Of a stretch of DNA of 64,000 nucleotides, positions 26,901 to 58,581 are shown in pieces (positions within the stretch are counted from its first letter, which is position 1; each line of letters opens with the position of its first letter). Position numbers and translations under genes: made by a program. Source of the stretch: an uncultured delta proteobacterium (GTDB taxonomy: Bacteria > Desulfobacterota > RBG-13-43-22); NCBI GenBank assembly GCA_963843145.1, contig CAWJJC010000023.1, positions 82,700 through 146,699 on the forward strand. The letters are read 5' to 3'. The notes beneath the pieces were generated by a model. The model ran no database searches and was not told where the DNA came from. It was given only the letters and a program-made list of their open reading frames with translations.

Positions 26901-27176
26901 AAAGCCGATTTCGTTATTCTGAATAATTAGTGTCCCGTCTGATCCATTTGATTTGGTAACTGCGGTTTTCATTAGCCAAAAGGAAATAAAAGGGCCAACA
27001 TTCCCATAGGAATTGTCTTCTGCATTCTGGATTAGCTCGAAGATGAAATGTGTGTCCTTACTATAGAGGTCTTCCGCAAGGGCTTTAATTGAATTATTCA
27101 GGCTATCCTTAATGCGTTGGCTTGCTTGAAAATCATTTCGAATTTTTCTGATATGTTCCTGCTGATCATGACTCAT
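23964..27176 (-). CDS. Sacsin/NOV-like GHKL ATPase protein with C-terminal HNH-like domain
   Basis: ELIQNAED, NNEIGFS, IGEKGIGFKSVF and FIINADF..SSRE. C-terminal CQICG...NALCLCADH. ATG lies 1 nt after the helicase stop. Visibly AT-rich. Confidence 0.82.
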   Translation of the reverse strand: MSHDQQEHIRKIRNDFQASQRIKDSLNNSIKALAEDLYSKDTHFIFELIQNAEDNSYGNVGPFISFWLMKTAVTKSNGSDGTLIIQNNEIGFSSKNVDALCAVGKTTKSKIQGYIGEKGIGFKSVFRITSNPYVISGGYQFSLPEHDGETGLGYIVPRWIDLPIGKIDPTQTTIILPLDKADFSYSKIEEMLRDIEPETILFLSKIKEIRIISDSGNSLSIRKDDSKSPLVQILVKGEQQGISFSNNREFILFNESFEKPEDIHHEKRIDIKERDVSIVFPLNEDKEGGGKIFAYLPVRSDTGFPFIINADFILTSSREDFKRGTSWNRWLMQCVAKLVVGGLSRIKELGLLKNEFLETLAKSIKDINEYDLFYPINQAVWEAFRDHELLPCDDEKYFISARNGLLARGSELRKLLSVDQLRNLILSEGDHRWLSGEITEGKTPNLYKYLTKECGVEEITPEGFVRKLTSNFLEMQSDEWMIIFYKYVGNLNALWKPTTSYWSPAGPLRSKKFIRLQDGSHVRPFQEDDSPNAYLANELDTQNSLPLVKFEIARQEDAHQFLKELGIPELDIVAEVMEQILPKYISSVPIDEHRRDIEKIVHAYETDSEEKKRRLRQKLQETSFILSVSPGIGATNYRKPNEVYFKNKGVETYFSGNLRIGFVCADYTEAALNLFSDLGVKGNIRIQKKEPNNLGYVSIRNDHGFHVRGLSGFDLEIRVDGLEHAIANPNIEKSSFIWNAIASPNLLCIRGIVETSSRQTYENSKKNERISSDFGRLLIETAWLPKRDGNFYKPEDISLDDLPESYIRDEKLANQLGMKKALVAKLAEEAGISQEIIEVARELERHPELLAEFRKRIQPGVLEERKKTDETAPGETDFKNELVQSFNRLGRTELNDQNIDDGTVKNPVRRRDKSYDGHFKHLQHEPNANERRKITIRMLLEGPDDQVREYLTEMYGGNCQICGTTFPERDGHPFFVANYIVPRKVARAFDTSGNALCLCADHFAKWQHGAIEAKDILFQIERYKTGLEGGDVEPILAIMMCGQRCEIKFKEKHLVDLQEIIRASENINEK

Positions 27177-27177
27177 C

Positions 27178-30100: not shown

Positions 30101-30784
30101 TTGGGACCCATAGTACGTCTGCGTCTCGTTTTCGATGAATACCTTATAGCGGTTTTCCGGCTTTCCGGGCACCATAGCAACCACCGCGCCCCGGAGAGCA
30201 GGATTTGATTTCAGGGATACAATCTGCCCCGGTTCAAACTCAAACCCTTGATTTATCTTATCCTGAGATAGTTGTTGCTCAATGGTTTCTCCCTGGGGAG
30301 AGAAAGGCATTTCCATGGCCAACAGGGAGGTCTTGGTAGCCCGCACTTTTTGGATTAAACTTTCATCCGCCTCAATGACCGTAGCAAAACGTTGCAGGGT
30401 GTCCAAGTCGCGGTAGACGTCATCAACCGGGAACCCTTCTGTTCCAGCATGCGCCCATCGGTTACGAACGGTCTGCATTTCCTTGACAAAATGGCGAGCT
30501 TCGGGGGTCAGGTCAAACTTTGATGATATCTGGTACCAGTTTTGGTCGAAGACTCGAAGCAGGGCGGCTAGGTCCAAAGCTGTCAGTGACCCTATTTTTT
30601 GTTGTTCTATTCGGCGTTGTTGCTGGATCGATAGGTTATTGACAACGAGTTGTTTCCACCAGCCCTCATGAAGGGAGGGAAGAACTTTCTCCAGAAACAA
30701 GGCAAGCTGCCCGGCGACCTCTTTCAAAAGAGTGGTCATGGAGCCTTCGAGGTGGTTGGATTCAAATGACATGATCTGGCCCAT
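27178..30784 (-). CDS. SNF2/RapA-DrmD-like helicase with N-terminal Swt1-like HEPN domain; 3' half broken by several frameshifts
   Basis: DLAALLRV...RNRWAH (HEPN RxxxxH), [29 protein letters not shown] and [19 protein letters not shown] across ORFs 28835..30784, 28545..28838, 27896..28585 and smaller pieces down to 27178. Confidence 0.85.
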
Positions 30785-33087: not shown

Positions 33088-34494
33088 TCAGCCGGCCTTT
33101 TTTATAAGCGATTCCTCGACCAGGCAGCTCAGATCCTTCATGACCAGCGGGGAATCCAGGGCCTTGATCCCCACCTGGAGCCCGGCGTAACAAAAGGGGC
33201 AGGCCGATATCAGTTCACTAGCCCCGGTAGCCTCCGCCTCCCTGACCCGCTCCTGGGCCATTTTGTTTTGAATATCCGGATAGCCTGACTTCAGACCGCC
33301 CCCGGCCCCGCAGCAGCGGGAGTAGGGACCGCTCCGGGACATCTCGACCAGTTCCAGCCCCGGAATGGCTTCCATGAGCACCCGCGGGTCCTCAAACACG
33401 CCACTGGCCCGTCCCAAATGGCAGGGATCGTGGTAGGTGACCTTTCGTTCCAACGGTTGAACAAAGGGCAGCTTTTTATCTTCCAGCAGTCGCCGGAGAA
33501 ATTCGACGGTATGGAGCACTTCAAAATTCAGCTTTCCCACCTTGGGGTAGTCTTCCTTGATGGTCTTGAAACAACCGGAACAGGAGCTGACCAGGGTCTG
33601 GATGCCCAGGGAATTGAGCTGCCGGATATTATCGCCGGCGATCCGTTCGAATTCCGGGTCCCCCATGCGCAGCAGCACGCTGCCGCAGCACTTTTCCTCT
33701 CCCCCCAGGACGCCGTAGTCGACTCCCAGGCTCTCCAGGATATTCAGGGTGCTGATAGCGATCTGTTTCACGTTGACGTCATAAACGGCCGTACATCCCA
33801 GGAAAAGCAGGGTCTTGGCCCCGGTCTTTTTGATCTCCCGCGGCGGGGCGATCAGGACATTGTCCTTCTGCGCCCGCCGGGCCCACTTGGTCCGACCGGC
33901 CCGAGGCTGCTGCCAGGGATTGTCGTAGGCCTTGACGCTTTTGACCAGGACCTTCTGCGGTTCCAGCGGCCCATAGCCGGCGGTGACGACCAGGCGGCGA
34001 ATGTCTTCCCAGAGGCTGACCGTATCGATGTTGGCCGGGCAGACAATCTGGCATTGCCCGCAGGTGGAGCATTCGTATAAATTTTGAACAAAGGCGTCGA
34101 TTTCCGGTTGGCCGATCTCCTGGTAGCGAAAAACAGCTCCCAAAAGTTTCTTGAGCGGCGCGCTTACCTTCTCCTGCTTCATGATCCGGGTCAGAAGCGA
34201 TCGTTGGGTTTTAACAATATGCAGAAAATCGGTGATCTTCTTCCGGGGGATGATCTGCTCCCGGGGGTCTTGGTCGTGCACGGGGCACCAGTTCAGGCAT
34301 TCGCCGCAACGGGTGCAGGCCTCGAGCTGAATCAACCGGGACGCGGACAGATTGAAAAGAGGGAGCTCCCGGATCGGCTCGGGACGCGCCTCGGTCACCG
34401 ATTCCTCCGGCTTCGATGGAATTGGCCCCATCGGTGATTTTTGGTCGACGGTTTCAACCAGAACTTCTTCGGTCATTATACTTTCTCGTAACAA
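33088..34494 (-). CDS. HdrD/GlpC-like Fe-S protein with two CCG domains
   Basis: CTRCGECLNWCP, CSTCGQCQIVCP, KCCG, YHDPCHLGR, RCCGAGGG and ACPFC motifs. Confidence 0.9.
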   Translation of the reverse strand: MLRESIMTEEVLVETVDQKSPMGPIPSKPEESVTEARPEPIRELPLFNLSASRLIQLEACTRCGECLNWCPVHDQDPREQIIPRKKITDFLHIVKTQRSLLTRIMKQEKVSAPLKKLLGAVFRYQEIGQPEIDAFVQNLYECSTCGQCQIVCPANIDTVSLWEDIRRLVVTAGYGPLEPQKVLVKSVKAYDNPWQQPRAGRTKWARRAQKDNVLIAPPREIKKTGAKTLLFLGCTAVYDVNVKQIAISTLNILESLGVDYGVLGGEEKCCGSVLLRMGDPEFERIAGDNIRQLNSLGIQTLVSSCSGCFKTIKEDYPKVGKLNFEVLHTVEFLRRLLEDKKLPFVQPLERKVTYHDPCHLGRASGVFEDPRVLMEAIPGLELVEMSRSGPYSRCCGAGGGLKSGYPDIQNKMAQERVREAEATGASELISACPFCYAGLQVGIKALDSPLVMKDLSCLVEESLIKKAG

Positions 34495-34750
34495 TCAACA
34501 TTTTGTAAAAATAGGGTCAAACTGCTCAGCCGAACGTTGGGGGGTGGGTGAATTCCCGAATCATCGACCCAACCGGCTTCACCCCCTCCCTAACCCTCGT
34601 CAAGGGGGAGGGAACAAGAAGCCGGCGGCGACATGGCCGCTGCCTTAATCGTCAGGCACTTTGGACACTTTAATTATTTCCATCCTGTACATCCAGTCGC
34701 CCAACCTTTGTCCTGCCTTGGTCTGTTTTGTCGGTGACAAAAAATCCAGG

Positions 34751-36268
34751 TTATCCCTTCTTCCTATATTGAGACACCAGGCTCAGCGGCGTCACGAAAA
34801 TATGCTTGAGCTTTCCGTAAGGCAAATAGGCCACCAGCAGCGCCCCCAGGACGGCGTGGGCATACCAGAAGTACACATAGGCAACAGGCCAGTCCGCCGG
34901 CAACCAGGCAAATAACCGGGAAAGCAGGTAGCCCACAAACGAATAGGCCGCCTTTCCCGGGGGAATCCCGGTTACCAGGATACGGGCGCCCTCCAGGAAA
35001 AACCCCACCAGCACCAGGGCCCCCAGAATGGCCAGGGCCCAGTTGTCTTTCCATTCACTAATGACCTGAGGGGGCTTCACGACCAACCGTTGAATGACCG
35101 AGGCCGCCAAACCCGCCAGGATGAACAGTCCCAGAAGGTCATTGGTCAGGGCCACGAAGGGATGGTTCTTGTCGATCAGGGCATAGGCCAGCACGCCGCC
35201 GGGTTTAAAAAAATAGGAAAAATGGGTCAACAAGGCCAGCCCGAACCGCAACAGGATGGCGTAGTAAATCAGGGAGTGGATGGACCAGCGTTTGACGCTC
35301 TCCTGCAGAATCCGCCGCTGGAGCAGCACATCAAAGAAGAACGTCTTGAGTAGGGCCCCGCATTCCCGGGAAAAGACAACGGACCAGGCCGCTTCCGATC
35401 CCAGGCTGATTTTTCGGTGGATCGATTTTTCCTCTCCCTGAACACTCCCGCTTATCCAGAACATCCCCGTCAACAGGAGACCCAGGCCAAAGAGGACCAA
35501 GGCCGCCCAGAAAATGGGATGCCCGACGGCGATCGGGGCATAGTGGCAGGGCAGGCAGAGCAGGCTTTTCGCAGGTAGGACCGCCGCTGCCGCCCCCACT
35601 TTATTCCCCGGCACATGGCAACGTTGACAGAACTCCGTACTTCGGGTATCCGGCAGGCGATGGTCGGTCAGCGCCATGGGGCTCCCCCAGGCATCGAGCC
35701 GGGAAAGAACCACCCGGTCTATGGATTTATTGAGTACCACCGCCTTTGACTGCCGGTGGCAGGCCTGGCAGCTTACCCGCAGATGGGGATCATGGGCCGC
35801 GCCTTCCCCGTGGACCGTATGGCAGGAGAGGCACTGGGCCCCCACCCGGGTCCGATGCGGCGAGCGGGCCACGTCGGTATGACAGGCCAGACAGGCCACC
35901 ATCCGGTGGCGGTTGCCGACAAAGGATTCGGGGGTTACCTGCAAGGAGACCGCGGTTTCGCCCCAGCTTCGTTTCAGGCCTTCCCGGGCGTGACACTCGA
36001 AACACAGGGCTTGGATAGCCAGGGCCCCTTCATTACTCTGGATGTTCGGCCGGCGGTGGCAATCCAGGCAGACCCGTTCCTTTCCCTCCGCCATGACCGG
36101 CATGGAAACCGGCGCCTCCGCCCACCCGCTCCGAACTCCCAGGACGCACCCGAGCACAGCCGTCAGCAGCAGGAACCCCAGTAGATTTTTTATATCTTTT
36201 TTTTGCATTTTGAAATTTACGCTTGGCCTTTGAACTATCGATTCCTCTCCTGCTGCACTTCTTCCCAC
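34751..36268 (-). CDS. Heptaheme cytochrome c fused to a NarI/DsrM-like membrane cytochrome b
   Basis: Seven CxxCH motifs, then TM helices with HSLIYY, GFFLEG and HA...YLPYGKLKHIF. The real start is probably MQKKDIK. Confidence 0.85.
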   Translation of the reverse strand: MGRSAAGEESIVQRPSVNFKMQKKDIKNLLGFLLLTAVLGCVLGVRSGWAEAPVSMPVMAEGKERVCLDCHRRPNIQSNEGALAIQALCFECHAREGLKRSWGETAVSLQVTPESFVGNRHRMVACLACHTDVARSPHRTRVGAQCLSCHTVHGEGAAHDPHLRVSCQACHRQSKAVVLNKSIDRVVLSRLDAWGSPMALTDHRLPDTRSTEFCQRCHVPGNKVGAAAAVLPAKSLLCLPCHYAPIAVGHPIFWAALVLFGLGLLLTGMFWISGSVQGEEKSIHRKISLGSEAAWSVVFSRECGALLKTFFFDVLLQRRILQESVKRWSIHSLIYYAILLRFGLALLTHFSYFFKPGGVLAYALIDKNHPFVALTNDLLGLFILAGLAASVIQRLVVKPPQVISEWKDNWALAILGALVLVGFFLEGARILVTGIPPGKAAYSFVGYLLSRLFAWLPADWPVAYVYFWYAHAVLGALLVAYLPYGKLKHIFVTPLSLVSQYRKKG

Positions 36269-36939
36269 TCCCCCGGGTGCTCGTGTTCCATCCTCTCCGG
36301 AGTGGTCTTCCCGTTGAAAATGGATTTGTCCAGCGGATAGACCTCCGGACGCAGATGGGCGGTCACCCCATGCACCACGAATTTCAAGGCCACGGCCAAC
36401 AGGGCTTCATAGAGATGAAGAACCCGGGCCAGGTTGATAAAATATCCGGGCATCCACCCGCTGAAAAACACCGGAAACCAGAGCACCAGCCCGGTCAGGC
36501 CCATGGTGTTCATCCCCACCAGCATGGCCCAATAATCCAGTTTCTCCCAGTAGGTGAACCGGTTAAATCGCGGCGGGCGGCCTTTCCCCAGAAAGTATTT
36601 GATATGGGCCAGGAGATCCTTCAGATCTTGGCTTCCGGGAAAGGCCGATTGGGGCCCGGTCAGGCGCCCTTTTAACACGCCCTTGAAATAGATCAGCCAA
36701 CCCAGATGGATCACCACCCCGCTGTAGGTGATCACCGCCCAGAAGCGGTGCCAGTATCCGGTCCAACCCGGGCCACCCCATAGGCCGACGATCCACTGGG
36801 CCCAGGCCTGGGAACTGAATTTAAGGGGAAAACCGGTCAGGGCCAGGCCGATAAACCCCACCATGATGACCCAGTGCAGCAGGCGGTGAATAACCGGAAA
36901 CCGGATCAACGAATGGTTTTCCTGACGGTTGACGGTCAT
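36235..36939 (-). CDS. FdnI-like cytochrome b/b6 membrane subunit
   Basis: Starts MTVNRQ (ATGA overlap). RF..IHRLLHW, LTGFPLKF, HRFWA, RFTYWEKLDYWA and LHLYEALLA motifs. Confidence 0.88.
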   Translation of the reverse strand: MTVNRQENHSLIRFPVIHRLLHWVIMVGFIGLALTGFPLKFSSQAWAQWIVGLWGGPGWTGYWHRFWAVITYSGVVIHLGWLIYFKGVLKGRLTGPQSAFPGSQDLKDLLAHIKYFLGKGRPPRFNRFTYWEKLDYWAMLVGMNTMGLTGLVLWFPVFFSGWMPGYFINLARVLHLYEALLAVALKFVVHGVTAHLRPEVYPLDKSIFNGKTTPERMEHEHPGEWEEVQQERNR

Positions 36940-37793
36940 GGCCGGCGCCTTTTCAGTTTTTCGTGCAGCTCCCGCAGCAACCAGATAAAACTGTGTCCAT
37001 AGAAAAAAGCCACCAACGTGATGACCAGTACCAGCATAACCAGGGTCACCGTTTGGATCACTCCGACCCGTGATTTCTGATCCCGGTCTTTTTCGGTCAA
37101 GCCCCGGGTGGTGGCGTGGATGACAAAGGTGGCGAACTGTTCGCGGGCCTGGGGGTGGCAGCGTTGACAGGCCTCCAGGGCAGCCTTTTGGTCTTTCAAG
37201 GACAGGCACTGATGGGCCCCGTGGCAGTCGGTGCAGTAAGCGGAGTTGATCTTTCCTAGATAGACGCCCTTTTTCCCATGGGAATTTTCCAGGTAGGAGG
37301 CCGCTTGGGCCGGATGGCAGGAACCGCAGGTAGCGGTCATCTCCCGCCCGAGTTCGAGTCGCGACCGGTGGGCCTTCCCATAATGGGAGGAATGGCAATT
37401 CCCGCAGGTGGGGGCCGGGGATTTCTTGGGGTCGACCGGCGTTCCGGCGAGGGCTTCGGCTTTTTCTTTCTGCAGGGCCTGGGCGTGGACGCCGGACAGA
37501 GTGCGCTTATATCCCGGACGATGGCAAGTTTGGCAGCGGCTGTACTCATAGACCCGGGAGGCCTCCCTTTGGAGGAAGCGGGGATCGCCGGCCTCCGGAT
37601 GGACCTTCCCCGGCTCTTTCATGTTTCCGTGACAGGCTTCACAGTTCATCGTCCCGTGGGCCGAACCTGAAAAACGGCTGAGATCAATGAACCAAGTGGC
37701 GTCGGGGGGAAGCGCATTGGCCTGGAGCGAGGACACCGCCAGCAGGCTGCCGATAATAAGAATTAGGCTGAAGCGAACTCGCGCCGCATTCAT
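36936..37793 (-). CDS. Hexaheme cytochrome c with C-terminal membrane anchor
   Basis: Signal peptide. CEACH, CQTCH, CGNCH, CGSCH, CTDCH and CQRCH. C-terminal TM helix. Confidence 0.9.
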   Translation of the reverse strand: MNAARVRFSLILIIGSLLAVSSLQANALPPDATWFIDLSRFSGSAHGTMNCEACHGNMKEPGKVHPEAGDPRFLQREASRVYEYSRCQTCHRPGYKRTLSGVHAQALQKEKAEALAGTPVDPKKSPAPTCGNCHSSHYGKAHRSRLELGREMTATCGSCHPAQAASYLENSHGKKGVYLGKINSAYCTDCHGAHQCLSLKDQKAALEACQRCHPQAREQFATFVIHATTRGLTEKDRDQKSRVGVIQTVTLVMLVLVITLVAFFYGHSFIWLLRELHEKLKRRRP

Positions 37794-39297: not shown

Positions 39298-40605
39298 TTA
39301 ACAAATGTCTCCTATCACCTGTTCCAGTATCTCCGAGGTAAACTCCATCCCGGTCCCGATGCCCGCCAGTTCCAGTAATTTTTCCTCACTCAGTTCCGGC
39401 GCCATTAGCGCAAAGATGGGGTGAATCCCGAAGATATACGCCAGGGCTTGCCGGCGCACCCACCAGCCCTCATCGGCCGGCACTCCGAAGTCGACGAAGA
39501 TCGGCTTCAGGGGCACCCCGGGACTGAAGGGGGTCGGTCCCACACCTTCCGGCGTTCCCTGCAGCCCCGGCAGCGACTTAAGAATGCCCTCCGCCTCTTT
39601 TTGACCGGACTTCAGGCTCAGTTCCGAAACGGCCGCCGGGTCGATTCCCGCTCGGGCACAGGCCTTCATTATCCGGCCGGAATCAAGGGCCGAAAGGCCC
39701 ATTTTCTGAAACCCGATCATCCCGTAAAGATCGGTTAATAAAAAGCCCGGCTCCCCCTTTTCCGGTTCCTCCAGCCTTCGAGGATCTTCATCCAGAAAAA
39801 GAAAAGTATTGGTAGCATAGGGCGTGTTGAAACAGGACTTGTGACGGTGAATGACCGGGACCAGCCACTCGGCCGTTGGGCCTTCCCCCAGGGCGGCCGC
39901 CATTTCCGCGATCCCCTTTTTACCGGCCCAAGGGCCCTGCTTCACGTTGGTCAGCAGGTCCCGACATGCTTCGATGAACGCCTCGGGGTCGGCTAATTCC
40001 AGCAGACCCATGCCTCGGACGGCTATCCCCTTCAATTTTTTTTCTCCGAACCGGCCGCCGAAGCCCCATCGATCCCCGCTGCCCCAGTAATTGTTGATGA
40101 GCTGGCCCAGGGAAGACCCGGCTTCACCGGACGGCCCGATGGCCAATACCTGGATGAGGTCATCCCCTAACGTCTGGCGGATGCCATCCGTAACCGTCCA
40201 GGTATCCTGGCCCCACAATTCTTCGGCCGGTTGAATATCCAGGATACCGTCGTGGAGCCACAGATACACCGGCTTGGCCGAGGCCCCTTTGATGACCAGA
40301 TAATCAAAACCCGAAAACTTGAATTCCATACCCATATATAATGTCAAGGGGGCATGGGCGATTTTTCCGGTCAGGGGACTCTTGGCGGTTACCAACCCCA
40401 GGGCCGCCCCTGGAACCAGGGTCCCGGTCAACAACCCGGATCCAATTACGATAGGATCTTCCTTCTCAAAGCGCCGATATAATTGGGTGGTAATGCCGGC
40501 ACCGCCGATCTTTTCCTGAACCAGACTGTTTTCCAGTTCTTCTTCGATCACCTCGGCTTTTCCTAAATCTACGATGGCGATTTTATTCGCAGCTAAGTAT
40601 TCCAT
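39298..40605 (-). CDS. Aldehyde:ferredoxin oxidoreductase-like protein (N-terminal domain intact, shortened and degenerate C-terminus)
   Basis: IGGAG, GLLTGT, AKSPLTG, GFDYLVIKGASAKPVYL, IGPSGE and G..FGEKKLKGIAVRG motifs. Confidence 0.8.
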   Translation of the reverse strand: MEYLAANKIAIVDLGKAEVIEEELENSLVQEKIGGAGITTQLYRRFEKEDPIVIGSGLLTGTLVPGAALGLVTAKSPLTGKIAHAPLTLYMGMEFKFSGFDYLVIKGASAKPVYLWLHDGILDIQPAEELWGQDTWTVTDGIRQTLGDDLIQVLAIGPSGEAGSSLGQLINNYWGSGDRWGFGGRFGEKKLKGIAVRGMGLLELADPEAFIEACRDLLTNVKQGPWAGKKGIAEMAAALGEGPTAEWLVPVIHRHKSCFNTPYATNTFLFLDEDPRRLEEPEKGEPGFLLTDLYGMIGFQKMGLSALDSGRIMKACARAGIDPAAVSELSLKSGQKEAEGILKSLPGLQGTPEGVGPTPFSPGVPLKPIFVDFGVPADEGWWVRRQALAYIFGIHPIFALMAPELSEEKLLELAGIGTGMEFTSEILEQVIGDIC

Positions 40606-48135: not shown

Positions 48136-48987
48136 GTGCTTGCCAACATCACCATCGCTTTGCTCAATGGCGTGATCTGGGGTTTGATCATGGCCCTGAT
48201 CGCCCTGGGCCTGAATATGATTTTCGGCCTCCTCCACATCATCAACATGGCCCACGGCGCCCTGTATATGCTGGGAGCGGTTGCCGGATGGTATGTCATT
48301 GAGACTACAGGAAATTTTTGGGCCGCCCTGTTTATCGCCCCGCTGATTATCGGGGCCGTCGGCCTGGTCATCGAGCGGGGCCTGCTGCGCACCATTGAAG
48401 ACCAGCCCCTGATGACCATCATTTGCACCTTCGGCATCATGTTGGCCGTCCAGCACTTGGCCTTGATGATCTTTGGAGGGACCCCCCGTCGCATGGCCTC
48501 CCCGATTACCTATCGCTTCGCCTTGTTCGATCTGCAATACCCCCTGATGCGGATCGTTATCGCCCTGATTTCGCTGGCCCTCATGGCCGCCTTGTGGTTT
48601 TTCATCAATCGAACCAAATACGGCATGTGGATGCGGGCCGTGGTCCAGGACCGCGACATGGCCGTCGCCCTGGGCATTCCGGTTCACAAGGTGTATATGT
48701 GGACCTTTGTGCTCGGTTCGGGACTGGCCGCCTTCTCCGGGGTACTGGCCGCCCCGATCGTGGCCGTGGAATTCATGATGGGCCGCGAGGTCCTGATCAT
48801 GGCCTTTATCATCGTTATCGTGGGCGGCATGGGCAGCCTGGAAGGTTCGGTGGTGGCCGCCATTATCATTTCCCTGATCCAGGGCGTCGGCTCCCTGTTC
48901 GTCCCCCCGGCCCTGGCCACGGTCTTTTCCCTGGCCTTCATGATCATCGTGCTGCTGATCCGTCCGCAAGGACTGTTCGGCGATTAG
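48136..48987 (+). CDS. livH: LivH-like ABC permease
   Basis: GLNMIFG...NMAHG and RPQGLFG motifs. Confidence 0.9.
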   Translation: MLANITIALLNGVIWGLIMALIALGLNMIFGLLHIINMAHGALYMLGAVAGWYVIETTGNFWAALFIAPLIIGAVGLVIERGLLRTIEDQPLMTIICTFGIMLAVQHLALMIFGGTPRRMASPITYRFALFDLQYPLMRIVIALISLALMAALWFFINRTKYGMWMRAVVQDRDMAVALGIPVHKVYMWTFVLGSGLAAFSGVLAAPIVAVEFMMGREVLIMAFIIVIVGGMGSLEGSVVAAIIISLIQGVGSLFVPPALATVFSLAFMIIVLLIRPQGLFGD

Positions 48988-49947
48988 AGGTATCCCGTGC
49001 TCTTAAAAAGGAAAACTCCCCGGCCTTCTTGCTGGGTTTTGGATTGGTCCTGTTGGTCCTGGCGGCCCTGCCCTTCACCATGGGACTTTTCTTTCAGACC
49101 TTTGTCACCGAAATTTTAATCTGGGTCCTTTTCGCCCTTTCCTTTGATCTGATCTTCGGGTATACCGGCCTCCTGAGCTTCGGCCAGGCCCTTTTTTTTG
49201 GTGTGGGCGGCTATACCGTCGGCATCCTGATCCTCAAGCTGGGGTGGTCCACCGGGACCGGCTTTCTCTTTTCGATATTCGTGCCCATGATTTTTGCCTG
49301 GTTTGTGGGTTATTTTTCGGTCAGGCTGACCGGCATTCACTTTGTCATTATTACCCTGATCTTCGCCCTGATCGGCAGTACCATCGGAGAGACTTGGAGC
49401 GTCGGTTACCGGCGGGGCCGATGGCCTGGTTTTTCCGGTCACCCCGATCCACTTCGGCCTGTTCCAGGTTGATCTGATGGATATCAAGTCGAATTATTAC
49501 TTCGCCCTGATCATTGTCGCCCTCTCCTACCTTCTCTTGCGCCGGATAGTTCAGTCGCCTTTGGGGAAAGTTCTTATTGCCATCCGGGAAAACGAAGACC
49601 GGGCCCGCTTGATCGGCTATTCCGTGGAACGCTACAAGTTGATCGCCTTTGTCATCGCCGGGGCCTTCTCCGGACTGGCCGGCGGCTTATACAGTCTAAC
49701 GCTTAAATATTCCTCGGCCAACTTCCTGCACTGGTCGGTTTCCGGGCATGCGGTGGTCTACACTATTGTCGGGGGCATGGGGACCCTGATCGGTCCCGTC
49801 CTAGGCACCGCTTTGATCATGTCCCTGGAACACTATCTAATCGATATTTTGGAGGGAACGGAACTCATCATCGGAATCGTACTGGTAGCGATGATTCTGC
49901 TCGCCCCTCAAGGTATCGTCGGGCTTCTAAAAAGAAAGGGACGTTGA
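48988..49947 (+). CDS. livM: LivM-like ABC permease (start uncertain; frameshift near 49400-49440)
   Basis: GYTGLLSFGQA in ORF 48423..49472. SPLG...IRENE..A and PQG in ORF 49477..49947. Confidence 0.8.
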
Positions 49948-51472: not shown

Positions 51473-52285
51473 GTGAAAGGCGGGGTGGTTATTAGTTTGA
51501 ATAATACCCTACGATTGGTCGGGGTTGCTTTTTGCCTGATGGGATTGTTCCCCGGCTGGTTGTCCGGGGAGGAATTCGAAGCCGTATCCTGTAAAGGCCG
51601 GTCCTTATGGGTTAAACGGGACCCTGCGACCCGATCGCCGCTGATCATCCGAAGTCTCCGGGGCCCACTCCTGAAGGTGAAATCCGGGTTCCCCGCCAAC
51701 CGGTCGCAGGCCGTCGCTAGTGGACTCGAACTGGTCGCCTTTCTGGAACCGTTGATTCCGATTAAGCCCGGTCAACTTAAGTTCAAATCGGCCGTGAAAA
51801 TCGAAGGATCCTGGTTCATCAGCTTCTGGCAGACGGAAAAAAATTATATCGTCTACGGCTCTTCTCTGGGCTACAGCATCGATCCCGGGGGCCTCATTCA
51901 ATCCGTCGGGGCCGTGCTTTATCCGGATATCCCCATTCCGGAAAAAATGGTGGTTTCCCGAAAACAGGCCCTGGAAAAGGCCAAGAGCGGCATTAAAGAT
52001 TTTCGACAAAAGAACTACCGTTTGTTAGCCGAGAATATTCTGATTTTTCCGGATCGGGAGGCCCGGCCGATTCGCTATTACCAGGTCTACGCCTTCAATT
52101 TCTTTACACCGGAGAAGGCTCGGCATCCGGGTACAGCCGAGGCCGGCCTGGGCTTATTCGTAGATACCCAAACCGGGAACATCGTGGATCGCCAGACTCT
52201 TTTTAAACCCTTGGGCTGTTGCGTGCCGGAGGAAGGCCCTCCACTGAACACCCAAGAACTTTATAAATCTCTAATCGGGAAATAA
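51473..52285 (+). CDS. Secreted protein resembling an FTP+PepSY propeptide without a catalytic domain
   Basis: Signal peptide; FWQ...VYGS.L..SIDPGG.I; VSRKQALEKA; FVDTQTGNIV. No HExxH motif. Confidence 0.55.
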   Translation: MKGGVVISLNNTLRLVGVAFCLMGLFPGWLSGEEFEAVSCKGRSLWVKRDPATRSPLIIRSLRGPLLKVKSGFPANRSQAVASGLELVAFLEPLIPIKPGQLKFKSAVKIEGSWFISFWQTEKNYIVYGSSLGYSIDPGGLIQSVGAVLYPDIPIPEKMVVSRKQALEKAKSGIKDFRQKNYRLLAENILIFPDREARPIRYYQVYAFNFFTPEKARHPGTAEAGLGLFVDTQTGNIVDRQTLFKPLGCCVPEEGPPLNTQELYKSLIGK

Positions 52286-52309: not shown

Positions 52310-53326
52310 ATGACTTTAAAAGAACGAGTGTTGAATCGTCTTCAGGGCAAAGAAGTGGATATGACCCCGGTGGGTTGCACCACAACCTATGGGGTGGTGG
52401 ATTTCATGAAAAAATGCGGCTTCGAGCGACCCCAGGCCGATACCGATCCGCTGGCTATGACCGAACTGGCCCTGGCCGGGCACACCTATGGCGGCTTCGA
52501 GTGGGTCAAAGCCATGGGTTGGGACATCGCGGCCTTGAGCGAGGCCCTGGGCTGCGAGTTGGGGACACCGAGGATCGACCGGCAGTATTATATCAATTCT
52601 TTCCCCTACGCGGAGGGCGTGGATCGTCTGGAATTCCCCTCCGACTTCCTCTCCCGCGGCCGCTTCCCGGCTTTTAAAGAACACCTGAAACTCCTTAAAG
52701 ATCGGGTGGGCGATCGGATGGCCATTTTCGGTGAAACCGAAGGGGCCTTTACCTCTGCCGCCAATCTGGTGGGTCCCGAACAATTTATCAAATGGGCCAT
52801 CAAAAAGCCCGATCAGGTGGCCAAAACGTTGGAAGTCACCAAACAGGCGGCCGTCGCCGCCGCCAACTTTGCCTTTGACAACGGGGTTGATTTTTTCGTC
52901 TTTGCCGAGCCGACTTCCGGACCGGCCCTGCTGAATCCCCGGATCTACGAAAAGCTGGTGTTGCCCGTGGAAAAGGAGATCGTCAGCCAATGCCAAGGGC
53001 CGGTGGTGTTGCACATCTGCGCCGATACCGATCCGATCATTGATTTCATGTGCCAGACCGGAGCGGCCGGAATCAGTATCGAGGAAAAGGCCGATTTAAA
53101 GCGGGCCGTGGAAATCGCCCACCGTTATGGGGTCAAGGTCTTCGGGAATGTGGCCACGGCCACCACCATTTTTAACGGCACTCCGGAGGAGGTTTACCGG
53201 GAAGCGATCACCGCCCTGGAAAACGGGACCGACTTTCTTTGCCCGGGTTGCGGCATCGCCCCCGGCTCTCCGCTGGAAAACATCGTCCAGATGAAAAAGG
53301 CCCGGGATGACTTCTATAACCAATGA
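52310..53326 (+). CDS. MtaA/CmuA-family (UroD-fold) corrinoid methyltransferase 1
   Basis: MTLKERVL, SEALGC, GRF, LHICAD, FGNV and PGCGI (Zn HxC...C). Confidence 0.9.
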   Translation: MTLKERVLNRLQGKEVDMTPVGCTTTYGVVDFMKKCGFERPQADTDPLAMTELALAGHTYGGFEWVKAMGWDIAALSEALGCELGTPRIDRQYYINSFPYAEGVDRLEFPSDFLSRGRFPAFKEHLKLLKDRVGDRMAIFGETEGAFTSAANLVGPEQFIKWAIKKPDQVAKTLEVTKQAAVAAANFAFDNGVDFFVFAEPTSGPALLNPRIYEKLVLPVEKEIVSQCQGPVVLHICADTDPIIDFMCQTGAAGISIEEKADLKRAVEIAHRYGVKVFGNVATATTIFNGTPEEVYREAITALENGTDFLCPGCGIAPGSPLENIVQMKKARDDFYNQ

Positions 53327-53386: not shown

Positions 53387-54067
53387 ATGGCTTCAGAAGA
53401 AAGAACCCAAGAGATCATAAAGGGACTTCAGCAGGCGGTAATTGAATTTGACGAGGACAAGACCAGGGAATTGGCGCAGGCCTCCATCGATGAAGGAGTG
53501 GACCCTTTTCTGGCCACGATGGAAGGTCTGGCTGAAGGAATGATTCAGGTGGGCGATCTGTATAATAAAAAAGAGTACTTTGTCTCGGAACTCCTGTTGT
53601 GCGCCGACGCCCTTTATGCGGGACTGGATTTACTCAAACCGGCTATTGTGGCCTCCGGAAGAATTAGTGAGGCCAAAGGCTCTATCGTCTTGGGCGTGGT
53701 GGAAGGCGATGTCCACGATATCGGCAAGAATCTGATCAAGATGATGTTCGATGTGGCCGGCTGGACCGTCTACGATCTGGGCAAGGATGTTCCTTTGGAA
53801 AAATTTGTCGAAGAACAACTGCGGACCGATTCGGATATCGTCGGACTTTCGGCTTTGATGACTACCAGCATGATCAGTATGCCGGAAATCGTCAAGAAGC
53901 TGAAAGAGAAAAATCCCAAGGTTCGGATTATGCTGGGCGGCGCTCCGATAACGCCTGAAACCGTGGAAAAATACGGCGCCGACGGGTACGCCAAGGACGC
54001 GGGGACGGCCGTGGATGAAGCCATCAAATTGATCAAAATGTTGAGGACCGAGGAAAAGACCAAATAG
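53387..54067 (+). CDS. Corrinoid (cobalamin-binding) protein, MtaC/MtbC-like
   Basis: B12 cap domain, GDVHDIGKN, GLSALMTT, GGAP and GADGY motifs. Confidence 0.95.
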   Translation: MASEERTQEIIKGLQQAVIEFDEDKTRELAQASIDEGVDPFLATMEGLAEGMIQVGDLYNKKEYFVSELLLCADALYAGLDLLKPAIVASGRISEAKGSIVLGVVEGDVHDIGKNLIKMMFDVAGWTVYDLGKDVPLEKFVEEQLRTDSDIVGLSALMTTSMISMPEIVKKLKEKNPKVRIMLGGAPITPETVEKYGADGYAKDAGTAVDEAIKLIKMLRTEEKTK

Positions 54068-54082: not shown

Positions 54083-57000
54083 ATGGCGAGTGGTGAAAAT
54101 GAAAAATGCCTGGTCATTTTTCAGCCCTCAGGTTGCCGAGGATATGTCGATAGAGGCAAGACCCTTAAACAGGCCTCCGTGGCCCTGGGCGTGGACATCG
54201 AGGGGGTCTGCGGTGAACAGGCCATTTGCGGAACCTGCAAGGTCCGGATTGAGGAAGGGGAGTTTGAAAAGTACGGGGTCCGTTCCGGCCGGGAGAGCAT
54301 CTCGGCTATGGGCCCCTCCGAAAGAAAATTTTTTAATTTACGCCAGGTGGATGAAGGCTATCGCCTGGCCTGTCAGGCCCAGATCCTCAACGACGTGGTT
54401 ATTTTCGTCCCGGAAGAAAGCCGCATGGGGAAGCAGGTGGTCCGCAAGGCCGCTACCTCGCGGCCCATTGCCGTCAAACCGGTGGTCCGAAAATATACCC
54501 TCGCCCTGGTCAAAGCCACCCTGAAGGATAATCTCGGAGACTGGGAACGAGTGTCCGCGGCGCTGGAGACCCAATACGGGCTCAAGGACCTGACCATCGA
54601 TTATGAAGCCCTCATGTTCTTGCAAGACCTGGTCCGGCAAGGAGAGTGGAAGATTACCGTTTCGGTCTGGCACGGCAAAGAGGTCATCCGGGTTGAGCCG
54701 GGGTTTAATGAAAAAAGCTACGGACTGGCGGTCGACGTGGGCACCTCCACGGTGGCCGGATATCTATGTGATCTGTCCGACGGCACGGTGGTGGCTACCG
54801 CCTCCATGATGAATCCCCAGATCGTCTACGGGGAAGATGTCATGTCCCGGATCAGCTACACCATGACCAACCCCGAAGGCCTGGAGATCTTAAACCAGGC
54901 CATTATCGACGGCCTGAACAATATCGCCGCCGAGGTGGCCGAAAGCGCCGGCATCAAACGCCAGGATATCCTGGATATGTCCCTGGTGGGCAATACCTGT
55001 ATGCATCATATTTACCTGAACATCAATCCCCGCTATATCGGTCGTTCCCCCTTTCCCCCCAGTCTGCATCATTCCCTGGACGTCAAGGCTCGTGATTTCG
55101 GCTTCAAGATCCCCCAGGAAAAAGAGCGGGAAGAGAAGGGCAAGTACGCCCCTTGTCGGGTGGAATGTCCGGCCGGGGTCAATGTAGACGACTTTCTATA
55201 TCTCATCGCCCAACGTAAATTCAGGGAGGCCCTGGAATTGGTCCGCCTTTCCTACCCCTTTCCCGGGGTCTGCGGACGGGTCTGCACCCATCCCTGTGAA
55301 CAAATTTGTGAAAGGGGAAAGGTGGATGAGCCCATCTCCATTCGGGCGGCCCATCGTTTCCTGAGCGATTTTGAATTGGCTGCGGGAAGGGAAAAGGCTA
55401 CTCCGGTGGAACTAAAAAAAGAGGCCCCCATCGCCGTGGTCGGATCAGGACCGGCCGGTCTGGCTTGTGCCTATGACCTGATCAATCGAGGATATCCGGT
55501 AACGGTATTTGAAGCCCAGTCCCAGGCCGGAGGAATGATGCGTTACGGCATCCCGGAATACCGGCTGCCCAAACGTATTTTGGATGATGAAGTCCGTTAT
55601 ATTGAAGAACTGGGCCTGGAGATCAGGACCAATACCCCGGTAAAAAACCTGAAGGATCTTTTCGATCAGGAGTATAAAGCCGTCTTCCTGGCCACCGGGA
55701 CCTGGAAAAGTCAAAAATTAAATGTTCCCGGGGAGGAAAGCCCGGGGGTGATGATGGCCCTCGACCTGCTCCGGGAGGTCAATTCAGGGGCGAAGGTCGA
55801 ATTAAGCGGAAAAGTAGCCGTGGTCGGAGGCGGCAGCGTGGCCGTTGACGCGGCTCGAATGGCCAAACGGTTGGGTGCCCGGGAAGTCCATCTGATCTGC
55901 CTGGAGTCCGACGACCTCACCTGCCAAGATCGGATGCCGGCCCAGGATTTGGAAATCGACCAAGCCCGCGAAGAGGGTGTGATCGTTCATCCCTCTCTGG
56001 GCGTCGGCGCCATCGTGGTCGACCAAGGCCGGGTCAGCGCCGTGGAAACCATAGGCTGTGTATCGGTCTACGATGACCGGGGACGGTTTGCGCCCCAGTT
56101 TTCCGAAGAACCGGCTCTCCCTATTGCCGTGGAGACCGTCATTGTGGCCATAGGCCAGAGGGCCGAAGAAGACCTCTTTCCCGATTTGGCCCGCCAGCCT
56201 TCGGGCAGCATCCAGGTGGATGAAAACACCTTTGAGACCAGCGTCCCGGGCGTCTTTGCCGGTGGAGACGGGGCCAGCGGACCAGCCAATGTCATCAAGG
56301 CCGTTCGGGCCGGCAAGGAAGCGGCCATCTCCATCGAACTTTATCTGACCGGAAAGGACATGAAGGAAGACCGCCCTAAAGCGCTCAAGGCCGTAGAAGA
56401 AATTCCCAAAGAAGGGGTCAAGAAAGAAGTCCGACAGATTGCCCCCGTACTGGCCCTGGATAAGCGTCAGGGCTTTGACGAGGTGGAAATAGGCTTTGAA
56501 GAAGCTCAGGTGATTCCGGAGGCGATTCGCTGTCTTCATTGCGCCGTTTATGCCCAGAAGGAGGCCTTCGAAGAAAAAGAGGCCCATGGCTGGGGGATCA
56601 AGATCGCCCCCGGTGCCTATGTCCATTGCCTGCCGATTGAGGCCGGCTTTGTGGGCGCCGATAATGTAGGCGTGCTGATCGCCGAAGCCCCTTATCATCA
56701 GGACTCCCTGGAGCTGATTATCGATATCGGCACCAACGGAGAAATCATTCTGGGCAATAAGGACCGCTTGATCTCCGCTTCCTGCGCCACCGGACCGGCC
56801 TTTGAGGGGGCCCAACTGCGTTTCGGTATGCGGGCCGCACCGGGGGCCATTGAAAAGATAGCGATCGATAAAGAAACCAAGGAAGTGCGGTTTAAGGTCA
56901 TTGATGAATCCCGCTGGAACACCGAAATGAAACCGGAGGAGATCAAGGCCAAGGGCATTTGCGGATCGGGGATCATCGACGCCCTGCCCCAGCTCTTCCT

Positions 57001-57535
57001 GGCCGGAATTATCGATAAATCCGGAAAGTTTAATAAAAATATGGAACACCCTCGCTTACGCTATTCAGGGGATCAATATGAGTATGTCATCGCCTGGACC
57101 CAGGAGACCTCCATCGGCCAGGACGTGGTCGTCTGTCAGGACGACATCCGGGCCATCCAGCTCGGTAAGGCGGCCATGTATGCCGGCAGCAGAATCCTCA
57201 TGGAAACCCTGGGTATCGAAAAAGTGGACAAGGTCATATTAGCCGGGGCCTTCGGAAGCTACATCGACAAACTTTCGGCGGCCGTGCTGGGAATGTTCCC
57301 GGATTGCGACCCCAAGAATGTCTATTCCGTGGGCAACGCCGCCGGTGACGGGGCCCGGATGGCCTTGCTCAATGCGGACAAACGTCTGGAAGCCGATAAC
57401 TATGCCCGGAAGGTGGAATACATCGAATTGACCCTTTCTCCGAAATTCGAAAAGATGTTCGCCCATTCCATGTGGATTCCGCACATGAAGGATGCCTTCC
57501 CCAACCTGCAGGAATTCCTGCCACCCAAGAAATAA
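54083..57535 (+). CDS. RACo/AcsV-type ATP-dependent corrinoid reductive activator (2Fe-2S plus ASKHA) with an inserted GltD/NfnB-like FAD/NAD(P)H/Fe-S module
   Basis: RACo motifs CGEQAICGTC..RLACQ, AVDVGTST, IDIGTNGE, GPAFEG, GICGSG and LAGAFG. Insert motifs APCRVECP, CGRVCTHPCE, GSGPAG, GGGSVA, FAGGD and RCLHC. Confidence 0.9.
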   Translation: MASGENEKCLVIFQPSGCRGYVDRGKTLKQASVALGVDIEGVCGEQAICGTCKVRIEEGEFEKYGVRSGRESISAMGPSERKFFNLRQVDEGYRLACQAQILNDVVIFVPEESRMGKQVVRKAATSRPIAVKPVVRKYTLALVKATLKDNLGDWERVSAALETQYGLKDLTIDYEALMFLQDLVRQGEWKITVSVWHGKEVIRVEPGFNEKSYGLAVDVGTSTVAGYLCDLSDGTVVATASMMNPQIVYGEDVMSRISYTMTNPEGLEILNQAIIDGLNNIAAEVAESAGIKRQDILDMSLVGNTCMHHIYLNINPRYIGRSPFPPSLHHSLDVKARDFGFKIPQEKEREEKGKYAPCRVECPAGVNVDDFLYLIAQRKFREALELVRLSYPFPGVCGRVCTHPCEQICERGKVDEPISIRAAHRFLSDFELAAGREKATPVELKKEAPIAVVGSGPAGLACAYDLINRGYPVTVFEAQSQAGGMMRYGIPEYRLPKRILDDEVRYIEELGLEIRTNTPVKNLKDLFDQEYKAVFLATGTWKSQKLNVPGEESPGVMMALDLLREVNSGAKVELSGKVAVVGGGSVAVDAARMAKRLGAREVHLICLESDDLTCQDRMPAQDLEIDQAREEGVIVHPSLGVGAIVVDQGRVSAVETIGCVSVYDDRGRFAPQFSEEPALPIAVETVIVAIGQRAEEDLFPDLARQPSGSIQVDENTFETSVPGVFAGGDGASGPANVIKAVRAGKEAAISIELYLTGKDMKEDRPKALKAVEEIPKEGVKKEVRQIAPVLALDKRQGFDEVEIGFEEAQVIPEAIRCLHCAVYAQKEAFEEKEAHGWGIKIAPGAYVHCLPIEAGFVGADNVGVLIAEAPYHQDSLELIIDIGTNGEIILGNKDRLISASCATGPAFEGAQLRFGMRAAPGAIEKIAIDKETKEVRFKVIDESRWNTEMKPEEIKAKGICGSGIIDALPQLFLAGIIDKSGKFNKNMEHPRLRYSGDQYEYVIAWTQETSIGQDVVVCQDDIRAIQLGKAAMYAGSRILMETLGIEKVDKVILAGAFGSYIDKLSAAVLGMFPDCDPKNVYSVGNAAGDGARMALLNADKRLEADNYARKVEYIELTLSPKFEKMFAHSMWIPHMKDAFPNLQEFLPPKK

Positions 57536-57549
57536 GGAGGAACAGTCAT

Positions 57550-58581
57550 ATGGGAACAGAAATGAGTGCCAGAGAACGGGTCCTCAAGCTTTTTAAAAAA
57601 GAAAAAGTCGATCGATTGCCGATCTTCAGCGGCATGGGAAATATCACTGTTACGGGTCTGGAACCCACCCAGTGGAACTTTGCTGAACTGCATCTGGATG
57701 CGGAAAAGATGGCTAAAATAGCCGCCTCGACTTCACAGTTGTTTGGTTTTGAATGTGCGGTGGTCCCTTTTGATATGGGGGTGGAGGCCGAGGCCTTGGG
57801 GGCGGGAGTTAATTATTATGCCCATCGTACCGATATCGTCTACCCGACGATTACCAAAAAATTAGCTGACAAATTCGATGACTTGAAGATTCAGATACCG
57901 GACTGGTCAAATGCCGGAAGAATTCCTTTGGTAGCCAAGGCCATTCAGCGCTTAAAAGAGGAAGTAGGGGATACCCTGGCCATAGGGGCTTGGGTCCTCG
58001 GTCCTTATACCTTGGCCGCTCAGTTGACCGATATGGGAGACCTGGCCAAAGCCGCTCTGAAGAAGACCGCCCAAGTGGAGGAGGTCTTAATGCAACTGGC
58101 CGAGGCGATTATTCAAATAGCCCGAATCTACCGACAGGCGGGCGCCGATTATATTACCGTCCGGGAAATGGGCGGCGGACCGGATATTATCAGCCCCCGA
58201 ATATTCAAGAAATTAATTCAGCCCCCCTTGGCCAAAATATTTGCCGCCCTGGAATCACCCAAGATCCTGCACATCTGCGGCAGCACCGATATGATTATTG
58301 AACAGATGGCCGAGTGCGGGGCCGATGGCTTGAGCGTAGATCAGAAGAACACCCTGGCTGAAACCAGGAATAAAATCGGATCGGAGATGCTCCTGTTCGG
58401 CAACTTTGACCCCTATGGGACCCTGGTTACGATGAACGCCGAGGAAGTGGATCAAGTCGTCAAAAACTGTTTCGAGGCCGGGATCAACGCCCTCTGGCCG
58501 GGATGTGATCTTTGGCCGGATTTAAAAAAAGAGAACTTTCAGGCCCTGATGGCCGCCGCCCTGAAATATGGGAAACAATAA
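57550..58581 (+). CDS. MtaA/CmuA-family (UroD-fold) corrinoid methyltransferase 2
   Basis: ATG after AAGGAGG. MSARERV, VPFDMGVEAEALG, GRIP, GPYTLA, LHICG and PGCD motifs. Confidence 0.9.
   Translation: MGTEMSARERVLKLFKKEKVDRLPIFSGMGNITVTGLEPTQWNFAELHLDAEKMAKIAASTSQLFGFECAVVPFDMGVEAEALGAGVNYYAHRTDIVYPTITKKLADKFDDLKIQIPDWSNAGRIPLVAKAIQRLKEEVGDTLAIGAWVLGPYTLAAQLTDMGDLAKAALKKTAQVEEVLMQLAEAIIQIARIYRQAGADYITVREMGGGPDIISPRIFKKLIQPPLAKIFAALESPKILHICGSTDMIIEQMAECGADGLSVDQKNTLAETRNKIGSEMLLFGNFDPYGTLVTMNAEEVDQVVKNCFEAGINALWPGCDLWPDLKKENFQALMAAALKYGKQ

Follow-up and report, generated by a model that had tools for sequence, protein, structure and literature searches.

A predicted corrinoid activase with a GltD/NfnL-type flavoprotein module lodged inside its ASKHA ATPase domain

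From which donor does a corrinoid activase draw the electrons that return an inactive Co(II) corrinoid protein to Co(I)? A single gene in a 64,000-nucleotide (nt) stretch of DNA from an uncultured delta proteobacterium (GenBank assembly GCA_963843145.1, contig CAWJJC010000023.1, positions 82,700 to 146,699 of the forward strand; hereafter the window, in whose numbering positions are given) raises this question. The gene encodes a protein of the RACo/RACE activase type that carries, within its ASKHA ATPase domain, a flavoprotein module of the GltD/NfnL type with a predicted site for NADH or NADPH (NAD(P)H). The physiological donor of RACE-type activators has not been pinned down, and a passage of PMC6739815 names the donor just by example, 'e.g., ferredoxin or flavodoxin'; the fusion gives a testable answer for one lineage. 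We consider that the fused enzyme probably supplies its own electrons, and we hold with somewhat better than even confidence that it is self-sufficient, driven by NAD(P)H and ATP in returning Co(II) to Co(I) on the corrinoid protein whose gene lies upstream.

The open reading frame (ORF) is intact, and its 1150 amino acids (aa) are laid out as follows:

54083..57535 (+): the complete gene, for a fused corrinoid reductive activase of 1150 aa (ORF, translation, Pfam)
54146..54382 (+): N-terminal plant-type [2Fe-2S] ferredoxin domain, aa 22-100 (Pfam Fer2; ligands C43, C49, C52, C97)
54455..54712 (+): RACo linker, aa 125-210 (Pfam RACo_linker, PF17650)
54719..55117 (+): first ASKHA lobe, aa 213-345 (Pfam Raco_middle; phosphate-1 motif D218-x-G-T)
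55091..55111 (+): upstream copy of a duplicated host heptad, R-D-F-G-F-K-I, aa 337-343 (alignments)
55112..56584 (+): permuted GltD/NfnL-like insert, aa 344-834, with predicted FAD, two [4Fe-4S] clusters and NAD(P)H site
55118..55381 (+): Fe-S helical domain, aa 346-433 (Pfam Fer4_20)
55430..56314 (+): FAD and NAD(P)H Rossmann domains, aa 450-744 (Pfam Pyr_redox_2; G454-x-G-x-x-G, G582-x-G-x-x-A, G-G-D729)
55898..55906 (+): C606-L-E at the end of NAD(P) strand beta-2, followed by a 5-residue insertion (alignments)
56528..56542 (+): R-C817-L-H-C820, where the insert ends C-terminally with the CxxC half of a cluster motif that is split (alignments)
56585..56605 (+): downstream, decayed heptad copy H-G-W-G-I-K-I, aa 835-841 (alignments)
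56585..57508 (+): remaining ASKHA ATPase, aa 835-1142 (D881-I-G-T-N-G-E, G1055-A-F-G; Pfam RACo_C_ter, aa 877-1142)

The RACo linker, middle and C-terminal families (PF17650, PF17651, PF14574) all score above cut-off, as do the two families of the insert (PF14691, 74.9 bits; PF07992, 115.8 bits), and the Raco_middle match breaks off at profile position 133 of 163. The solved RACo chain 3zyy (631 aa) aligns in two stretches, with query aa 11-328 and 839-1141 covering chain residues 6-322 and 335-629, so that about 500 residues are extra at one point of a complete RACo. As D218-x-G-T stands upstream of the insert, and D881-I-G-T-N-G-E and G-A-F-G stand downstream, the insert lies inside the ASKHA fold, between its lobes. 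An earlier sequence-only reading of this DNA had described a RACo with a GltD/NfnB-like module inserted in the ATPase, an arrangement that the Pfam order and the 3zyy alignment bear out. The motifs that it had named are all present in the translation (A-P-C358-x3-C362-P; C397-G-R-V-C401-x-H-P-C405-E; GSGPAG; GGGSVA; FAGGD at 725-729; RCLHC at 816-820; C606-L-E), and its remark that characterised activators are about half as long agrees with the length of 3zyy. There is no GC step at either insert junction. Two narrower assignments were rejected, namely AcsV, the CoFeSP-specific activase (NCBIfam NF040756; 418.3 bits, cut-off 800), and RamA, the archaeal methylamine activase (TIGR04270; 116 bits, cut-off 500); CoFeSP genes were not found among the window ORFs scanned (20 and 33 in two scans).

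The arrangement is not confined to one assembly. A protein-collection search listed 120 matches, 60-91% identical and drawn from NCBI, JGI, ENA and Logan assemblies; each of the 120 carries the RACo, Fer4_20 and Pyr_redox_2 domains, under names that are only generic ('DUF4445', 'ASKHA domain-containing', 'FAD-dependent oxidoreductase'); their taxon labels include Deltaproteobacteria, Desulfobacteraceae, Chloroflexota and Peptococcaceae. Two partial sequences were excluded from the conservation alignment, and the 118 full-length homologues that remained share the same architecture without exception. Likewise invariant in 118/118 are the [2Fe-2S] ligands C43, C49, C52 and C97, the insert residues C358, C362, C401, C405, C817, C820 and E406, the glycines of both dinucleotide motifs, and the ASKHA motifs D218-x-G, D881-I-G-T-N-G-E and G-A-F-G. 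Near-invariant positions are C409, A587 and D729 of G-G-D (each kept in 117/118), E410 (varying in 3/118) and T221 (Ser in 9/118). Position C397 is variable, with Cys in 75 and Leu in 43 of the 118; a non-Cys fourth Fe-S ligand is known in the GltD/NfnL-type family.

Compared with the 87% identical L001, the ratio of nonsynonymous to synonymous substitution (dN/dS) is 0.147 for the insert, on which purifying selection acts, and 0.084 for the N-terminal host part. After clustering at 50% identity, P0088 was the only full-length relative among the best 150 of 1.84 billion representatives, so that the family forms one compact group; in the ESM Atlas, too, it falls into one cluster, of 201 members. 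Among the best 80 loci of species-representative genomes, at least four carry the fused gene. A chimeric assembly, which the sequence-only reading had named among the findings that would refute it, is excluded by the recurrence of the architecture in independent assemblies from several sources. For the broader suspicion of either a chimera or a pseudogene no point in favour was found, and its probability is close to nil: both domain sets recur together in the 120 listed matches, four genome loci from three lineages are also fused, the junctions lack a GC break, and dN/dS is 0.08-0.15.

What kind of module is this insert? Its best sequence matches in the PDB, 9bov_A (338 bits), 9n5u_A (302) and 8oh5_C (285), are large subunits of NfnABC/Stn transhydrogenases, matched in their NfnL-like middle domain, and stand-alone NfnB/NfnL, GltD and dihydropyrimidine dehydrogenase rank below them. 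In stand-alone NfnB (4ylf_B) the segment ending in R-C-L-Q-C occupies residues 15-44, just before P-C-x3-C-P at 46, and 5vj7_A has the same N-terminal placement; the corresponding R-C-L-x-C segment is C-terminal in the window protein (module aa 793-822) and in the NfnABC/Stn subunits. By these alignments the insert is a circular permutation of NfnB, opened inside a Cys motif. Since the opening falls within one Cys motif, the first and last residues of the insert belong to one Fe-S site; its two ends meet, which suits insertion into a loop. A [4Fe-4S] cluster would then sit at the host/insert junction, ligated by both ends of the insert, an assignment that leans on the ligation patterns of the NfnL-type family.

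The predicted fold agrees with the sequence matches. An AlphaFold2 model built from an 80-row alignment has a mean predicted local distance difference test (pLDDT) score of 92.4, with values below 50 solely at residues 1-6 and in the junction linkers (aa 345-349 and 826-836). In Foldseek, the insert fits NfnB 4ylf_B with a template modelling score (TM-score) on target of 0.79 and a root-mean-square deviation of 2.3 Å; 5jca_L and 6s6s are also among its fold matches, and RACo 3zyy is matched across the insert with a TM-score on target of 0.71-0.85. Complex prediction, in which the Fer2 domain (aa 1-118) was set against the insert (aa 346-834) and two [4Fe-4S] plus one [2Fe-2S] were supplied, gave 0.59, 0.00 and 0.00 in three runs against a mark of 0.32, and weighs neither way.

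With these parts, an electron path through the polypeptide may be proposed. NAD(P)H would transfer a hydride to the flavin adenine dinucleotide (FAD) of the insert, which would release single electrons through two [4Fe-4S] clusters, one of them at the host/insert junction, to the N-terminal [2Fe-2S] domain. With ATP bound on the ASKHA domain, whose role would be that of ATP in RACo, the [2Fe-2S] cluster would then reduce Co(II) of the corrinoid protein, restoring Co(I). Whereas the architecture, the conserved cofactor and ATP motifs, the purifying selection and the genomic association are observed, we infer all of the catalysis, the way in which electrons run and the independence from ferredoxin or flavodoxin; self-sufficient function is plausible because cofactor conservation, synteny and thermodynamics all agree with it. 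NAD(P)H has a potential of about -320 mV. In a passage of PMC6739815, the [2Fe-2S] cluster of the bacterial activating enzyme is placed at -330 mV, and ATP is described as shifting the Co(II)/Co(I) couple from -530 up to -250 mV. Set against that cluster and the ATP-raised cobalt couple, the potential of NAD(P)H would suffice to charge the [2Fe-2S] domain without bifurcation.

The solved relatives bear on the same point. In the Caldicellulosiruptor NfnABC, as set out in passages of PMC11829005, the homologous permuted cassette binds NADPH beside FAD, takes in its hydride and passes the electrons singly into an Fe-S chain, and the cassette FAD is a plain NADPH entry point and not the bifurcation site. 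The alternative is that the insert FAD bifurcates as in NfnSL, sending one electron at low potential to Co(II) and the other to a higher-potential acceptor, so that the need for ATP is lowered or replaced. This reading can appeal to the homology of the insert with bifurcating NfnL/NfnB (4ylf_B, 5jca_L) and to the [2Fe-2S] cluster of the polypeptide, which makes the cofactor set resemble that of NfnSL minus the second flavin. However, the nearest solved permuted relatives are the NfnABC/Stn subunits (338 and 285 bits), neither an NfnS-like partner (FAD and [2Fe-2S], PyrK-like) nor an evident high-potential acceptor was found among the scanned window ORFs, the ATPase motifs are all kept in 118/118 homologues, and bifurcation is not thermodynamically required by the potentials in that passage of PMC6739815. 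We therefore judge it very unlikely, and the words 'possibly bifurcating' in the sequence-only reading did not find support. More unlikely still is a combined scheme that starts from the place of the cassette at the hinge of the ASKHA lobes, with a [4Fe-4S] cluster bridging the junction: closure of the lobes by ATP would mechanically gate electron injection while FAD and [2Fe-2S] split the NAD(P)H electron pair, as in NfnSL, to yield an electron able to reduce Co(II), uniting bifurcation and ATP coupling in one polypeptide.

The gene stands in a tight, operon-like row with the following neighbours:

52310..53326 (+): MtaA/CmuA-family (URO-D fold) corrinoid methyltransferase (library scans, PDB match)
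53387..54067 (+): corrinoid protein with B12-binding_2 and B12-binding domains and a D-V-H-D-I-G (DxHxxG) motif, the presumed substrate of the activase
57550..58581 (+): second MtaA/CmuA-family methyltransferase (library scans, PDB match)

Gaps of 14-15 nt with ribosome-binding sites flank the activase; GGAAGGAG precedes its ATG, which lies 15 nt past the stop of the corrinoid-protein gene. The mechanical ORF of the second methyltransferase begins at 57472, and its true start is likely the ATG at 57550, behind AAGGAGG. For both methyltransferases the best PDB match is MtaA 4ay7 (231 and 162 bits). An identity as O-demethylases was rejected, MtaA 4ay7 being the sole PDB match at E <1e-5 (in the second gene together with a weak uroporphyrinogen decarboxylase); no Desulfitobacterium O-demethylase chain was matched by either protein in the PDB search. 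A Type 1 mlp cluster, in a passage of PMC10418091, comprises three MtaA-like Mlps along with a corrinoid protein and a Ram/RACE activase; the window combines MtaA-like genes (two, not three), a corrinoid protein and an activase, a likeness of gene content only.

Comparable rows accompany the gene in other genomes:

L001, Thermodesulfobacteriota (partial): corrinoid protein, fused gene
L002, Syntrophales: URO-D, corrinoid protein, fused gene, MtrH, URO-D
L003, Desulfobacteraceae: URO-D, corrinoid protein, fused gene
L004, Dehalococcoidia: fused gene, MtrH, URO-D ... corrinoid protein

In L005, which is closest among the non-fused relatives, the genes run URO-D, corrinoid protein, RACo (660 aa), MtrH, URO-D. 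Because the 660-aa RACo occupies the same place in the same order, the fused gene stands in for the canonical activase. This synteny also bears on the possibility of a bifunctional fusion, in which the flavoprotein serves an unrelated reaction, for example on a thiol/disulfide co-substrate of the MtaA-like methyltransferases. Both methyltransferases are indeed similar to MtaA, of the thiol-methylating type (4ay7, 231/162 bits), and GltD cassettes are joined to many different redox partners. Nevertheless, insertion into an ATPase loop with a cluster at the junction would be an unlikely layout if the activities were unrelated, the insert contains nothing beyond NfnL that could serve as a substrate-binding domain, and the fused form replaces canonical RACo in otherwise identical clusters. 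We regard a bifunctional protein as improbable, if ranked just above bifurcation at the FAD.

Whether the self-sufficient activase would use NADH or NADPH can be approached from the end of NAD(P) strand beta-2. There, 61 of the 118 homologues have Y-R-R-S, the sequence found also in the solved NADPH enzymes aligned, and 56 have the window type, C-L-E(-S) with a 5-residue insertion, plus one S-L-E variant. An acidic residue at this position usually favours NADH. The sequence-only reading had taken C-L-E as a hint of NADH, and that residue pattern recurs in about half of the family; the GxGxxA glycine motif, which a passage of the Stn paper associates with NADP(H) (PMC7483475), points the other way.

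How did the module enter the activase? Canonical relatives have one K-A-R-D-L-G-L-K-I...P-G-A-Y-V-H segment (alignment of 88 sequences), and fused forms have R-D-x-G-[LI]-K-I both before and after the insert (alignments of the 88 sequences and of the 118 homologues). Many members keep the heptad well in both copies (R-D-W-G-L-K-I, R-D-I-G-I-K-I), and those of the window, R-D-F-G-F-K-I and H-G-W-G-I-K-I, are decayed. By these alignments, a seven-residue host segment is duplicated on both flanks of the insert, a protein-level feature that is real and family-wide. The octamer TCAAGATC, at 55104-55111 and 56598-56605 with a spacing of 1494 nt, is the DNA trace of this heptad duplication; counted as an 8-mer it is not significant (three window copies against 2.5 expected, with 46 of 100 shuffles reaching three). 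Thus the duplicated junction of the sequence-only reading held at the protein level, whereas its DNA repeat is no more than chance would give.

A tree of host columns only (36 rows, 648 columns; IQ-TREE quick, LG+G4) places 19 of the 20 fused sequences together with L006 in one clade at 99% support in the Shimodaira-Hasegawa-like approximate likelihood ratio test (SH-aLRT). The remaining fused sequence, P0116, lies in an unresolved fork beside non-fused Dehalococcoidales sequences. By the approximately unbiased (AU) test, a single clade of all fused sequences and L006 was not rejected (delta lnL 0.97, p 0.46), and a fused clade without L006 was (delta lnL 101, p 1.2e-5). L006 (5015-7111, +) is a 698-aa RACo in which both junction flanks and the first linker residues are kept, with about 50 residues between them; its neighbours are TRAP transporter genes and a URO-D methyltransferase. 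L006 has thus lost the flavoprotein module secondarily, by a natural deletion whose scars are still visible. The family is a clear illustration of domain insertion, with a permuted cassette whose ends meet at one Fe-S cluster, a duplicated target and a later, scarred deletion.

In a tree of inserts only, with 10 free GltD-like modules as outgroups, C-L-E-type and Y-R-R-type inserts lie across a branch of 99% support, and uniting all inserts in one clade is disfavoured by the AU test (delta lnL 74.7, p 0.012, for a group named after the tree was seen). Inserts of the two types are about 53% identical, no higher than their identity to free modules, whereas the host parts are about 72% identical and do group together, unlike the inserts. 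P0059 has the Y-R-R-S motif, yet is placed in the C-L-E clade. These patterns suggest either that the insert evolves faster than the host or that the module was exchanged at some point.

Several results weigh against a self-sufficient activase. Within flanks of about 6 kb, none of 76 non-fused RACo loci has a GltD-like ORF of at least 150 aa, so that no split form supports the link between module and activase. L006 is nested in the fused clade and has lost the module, yet its 698-aa frame is open, and to judge from it the activase core may work without the module. Moreover, the cofactor signals conflict (C-L-E at beta-2 versus GxGxxA), the full-length NCBIfam models all stay under their cut-offs (AcsV at 418 and RamA at 116 bits, as given above, and PRK12771 at 423.5 against 516), and the predicted TM-score (pTM) of the AlphaFold2 model is 0.63, which leaves the relative placement of the domains uncertain.

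Some of these results would favour an enzyme that still needs an external low-potential donor, ferredoxin or flavodoxin, at its [2Fe-2S] cluster, with the insert acting as an NAD(P)H/NAD(P)+ sensor or gate, or as a safety valve that drains electrons. The core of a canonical activase is present in full, L006 remains open without the module, an insert between the ASKHA lobes could affect closure of the ATPase, and a pTM of 0.63 gives no confident electron path. Against this, conservation extends to all Fe-S ligands of the insert, for which a pure dinucleotide sensor would have no use; furthermore, the role of the cassette in the closest solved relatives is NADPH electron input, in the passages of PMC11829005. 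An external donor is, in our view, unlikely, although less so than the other alternatives, and we retain the self-sufficient activase as the preferred reading.

In comparison with known systems, the activase part is closest to RACo of Carboxydothermus hydrogenoformans (3zyy, 4c1n) and the RACE O-demethylase activators, with which the [2Fe-2S] domain, linker and ASKHA domain align end to end (E 3.8e-101; TM-score up to 0.85). As in those systems, the fused gene stands beside a corrinoid protein and methyltransferases, both in the window and in L001-L004. It differs in about 490 extra residues between the ASKHA lobes and in its partner, a small B12-binding corrinoid protein and not the CoFeSP of RACo; known RACo and RACE members require an added reductant. 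Other RACo fusions were also seen, with a domain like the URO-D methyltransferases at the C-terminus (P0128, P0136, P0142, P0174, P0191; about 850-910 aa) and with a C-terminal cyclic-nucleotide-binding (cNMP) domain in P0121 (784 aa).

For the insert, the large subunits of NfnABC/Stn (9bov, 9n5u, 8oh5) share the permutation, the FAD and [4Fe-4S] and the embedding of the cassette in a larger host, but that host is a NuoG/Fdh-like subunit of a bifurcating complex, and they have Y-R-R where the window protein has C-L-E. NfnB/NfnL of NfnSL, GltD and the N-terminal part of dihydropyrimidine dehydrogenase have the fold and cofactor motifs of the insert, with the CxxC segment N-terminal, and are stand-alone subunits with their own partners. 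Functionally, reactivation of MetH by methionine synthase reductase, or by flavodoxin reductase and flavodoxin, is analogous, in that NADPH electrons reduce inactive Co(II) through a flavoprotein that converts two-electron to one-electron transfer; the folds are unrelated, and the uphill step is driven by S-adenosylmethionine methylation, not by ATP. The same cassette is also present in HdrL/HdrA-like proteins (P0164, P0183, P0200, P0212, P0241, P0251, P0264), a parallel that the sequence-only reading had drawn correctly, and in further fusions beside FlpD, DHO_dh, TPP and CCG domains; all of these have another host and reaction, and none is an ATPase. HdrL itself is a glutamate-synthase fusion that may take NADH electrons (PMC2702500).

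Both partners and the principle of insertion were therefore already known, and the combination of RACo with a GltD cassette is widespread. Full-text literature searching, with paper supplements outside its scope, found no paper that describes the fusion, in keeping with the sequence-only reading, to which no characterised example was known. DUF4445/RamA-like proteins have been read as methionine synthase B12 reactivators (PMC5764234) and as members of mlp methyltransferase clusters (PMC10418091), and the passages of these two papers that deal with them mention no such fusion; PMC5770442 and PMC5736913 were rejected as unrelated. The hosts of the family are uncultured sulfate-reducer-like Thermodesulfobacteriota, Dehalococcoidia and Peptococcaceae with methyl-transfer gene clusters. 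If the proposed function is true, B12-dependent methyltransferases could be reactivated in vitro by NAD(P)H and ATP alone, replacing Ti(III) citrate or a ferredoxin system.

Elsewhere in the window, a Liv-type ABC transporter lies upstream of the methyltransferase/activase row. Its second, LivM-like permease appears split at 48423-49947 (+), where ORF 48423-49472 covers profile positions 5-95 and ORF 49477-49947, in another frame, covers 136-268; a frameshift or an error of sequencing may be the cause. The 270-aa ORF 51473-52285 (+), which lies between this transporter and the first methyltransferase, has no Pfam/NCBIfam family; in the Atlas it is related solely to a 'hypothetical' cluster of 50 members, found most often in Thermodesulfobacteriota, with a weak FTP/PepSY lead, and a 285-aa ORF of L003 was rejected as its relative, the two being unrelated.

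Genes at 33088-37398 (-) encode a TfrB/TmcB/DsrK-like CCG Fe-S protein, a multihaem cytochrome-like ORF and a cytochrome b-like subunit; they are typical of sulfate-reducer electron transfer and fit a Thermodesulfobacteriota origin. The 435-aa ORF at 39298-40605 (-) matches only the N-terminal domain of aldehyde:ferredoxin oxidoreductase and may be truncated; near it, on the plus strand, are a GntR regulator, a methylmalonate-semialdehyde-type aldehyde dehydrogenase, a GlcD-like FAD oxidase and a CCG-domain protein. A DarG antitoxin (DNA ADP-ribosyl glycohydrolase) is encoded at 22251-23288 (-; 479 bits, cut-off 250), adjoined by a 388-aa ORF without an assigned family (21044-22210), and 23964-27197 encodes a 1077-aa protein with a sacsin-like ATPase domain. 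At 27896-30784 (-), adjoining ORFs of 649 and 229 aa each match another part of the DISARM SNF2-like helicase DrmD, pointing to a defence gene that is split or broken.

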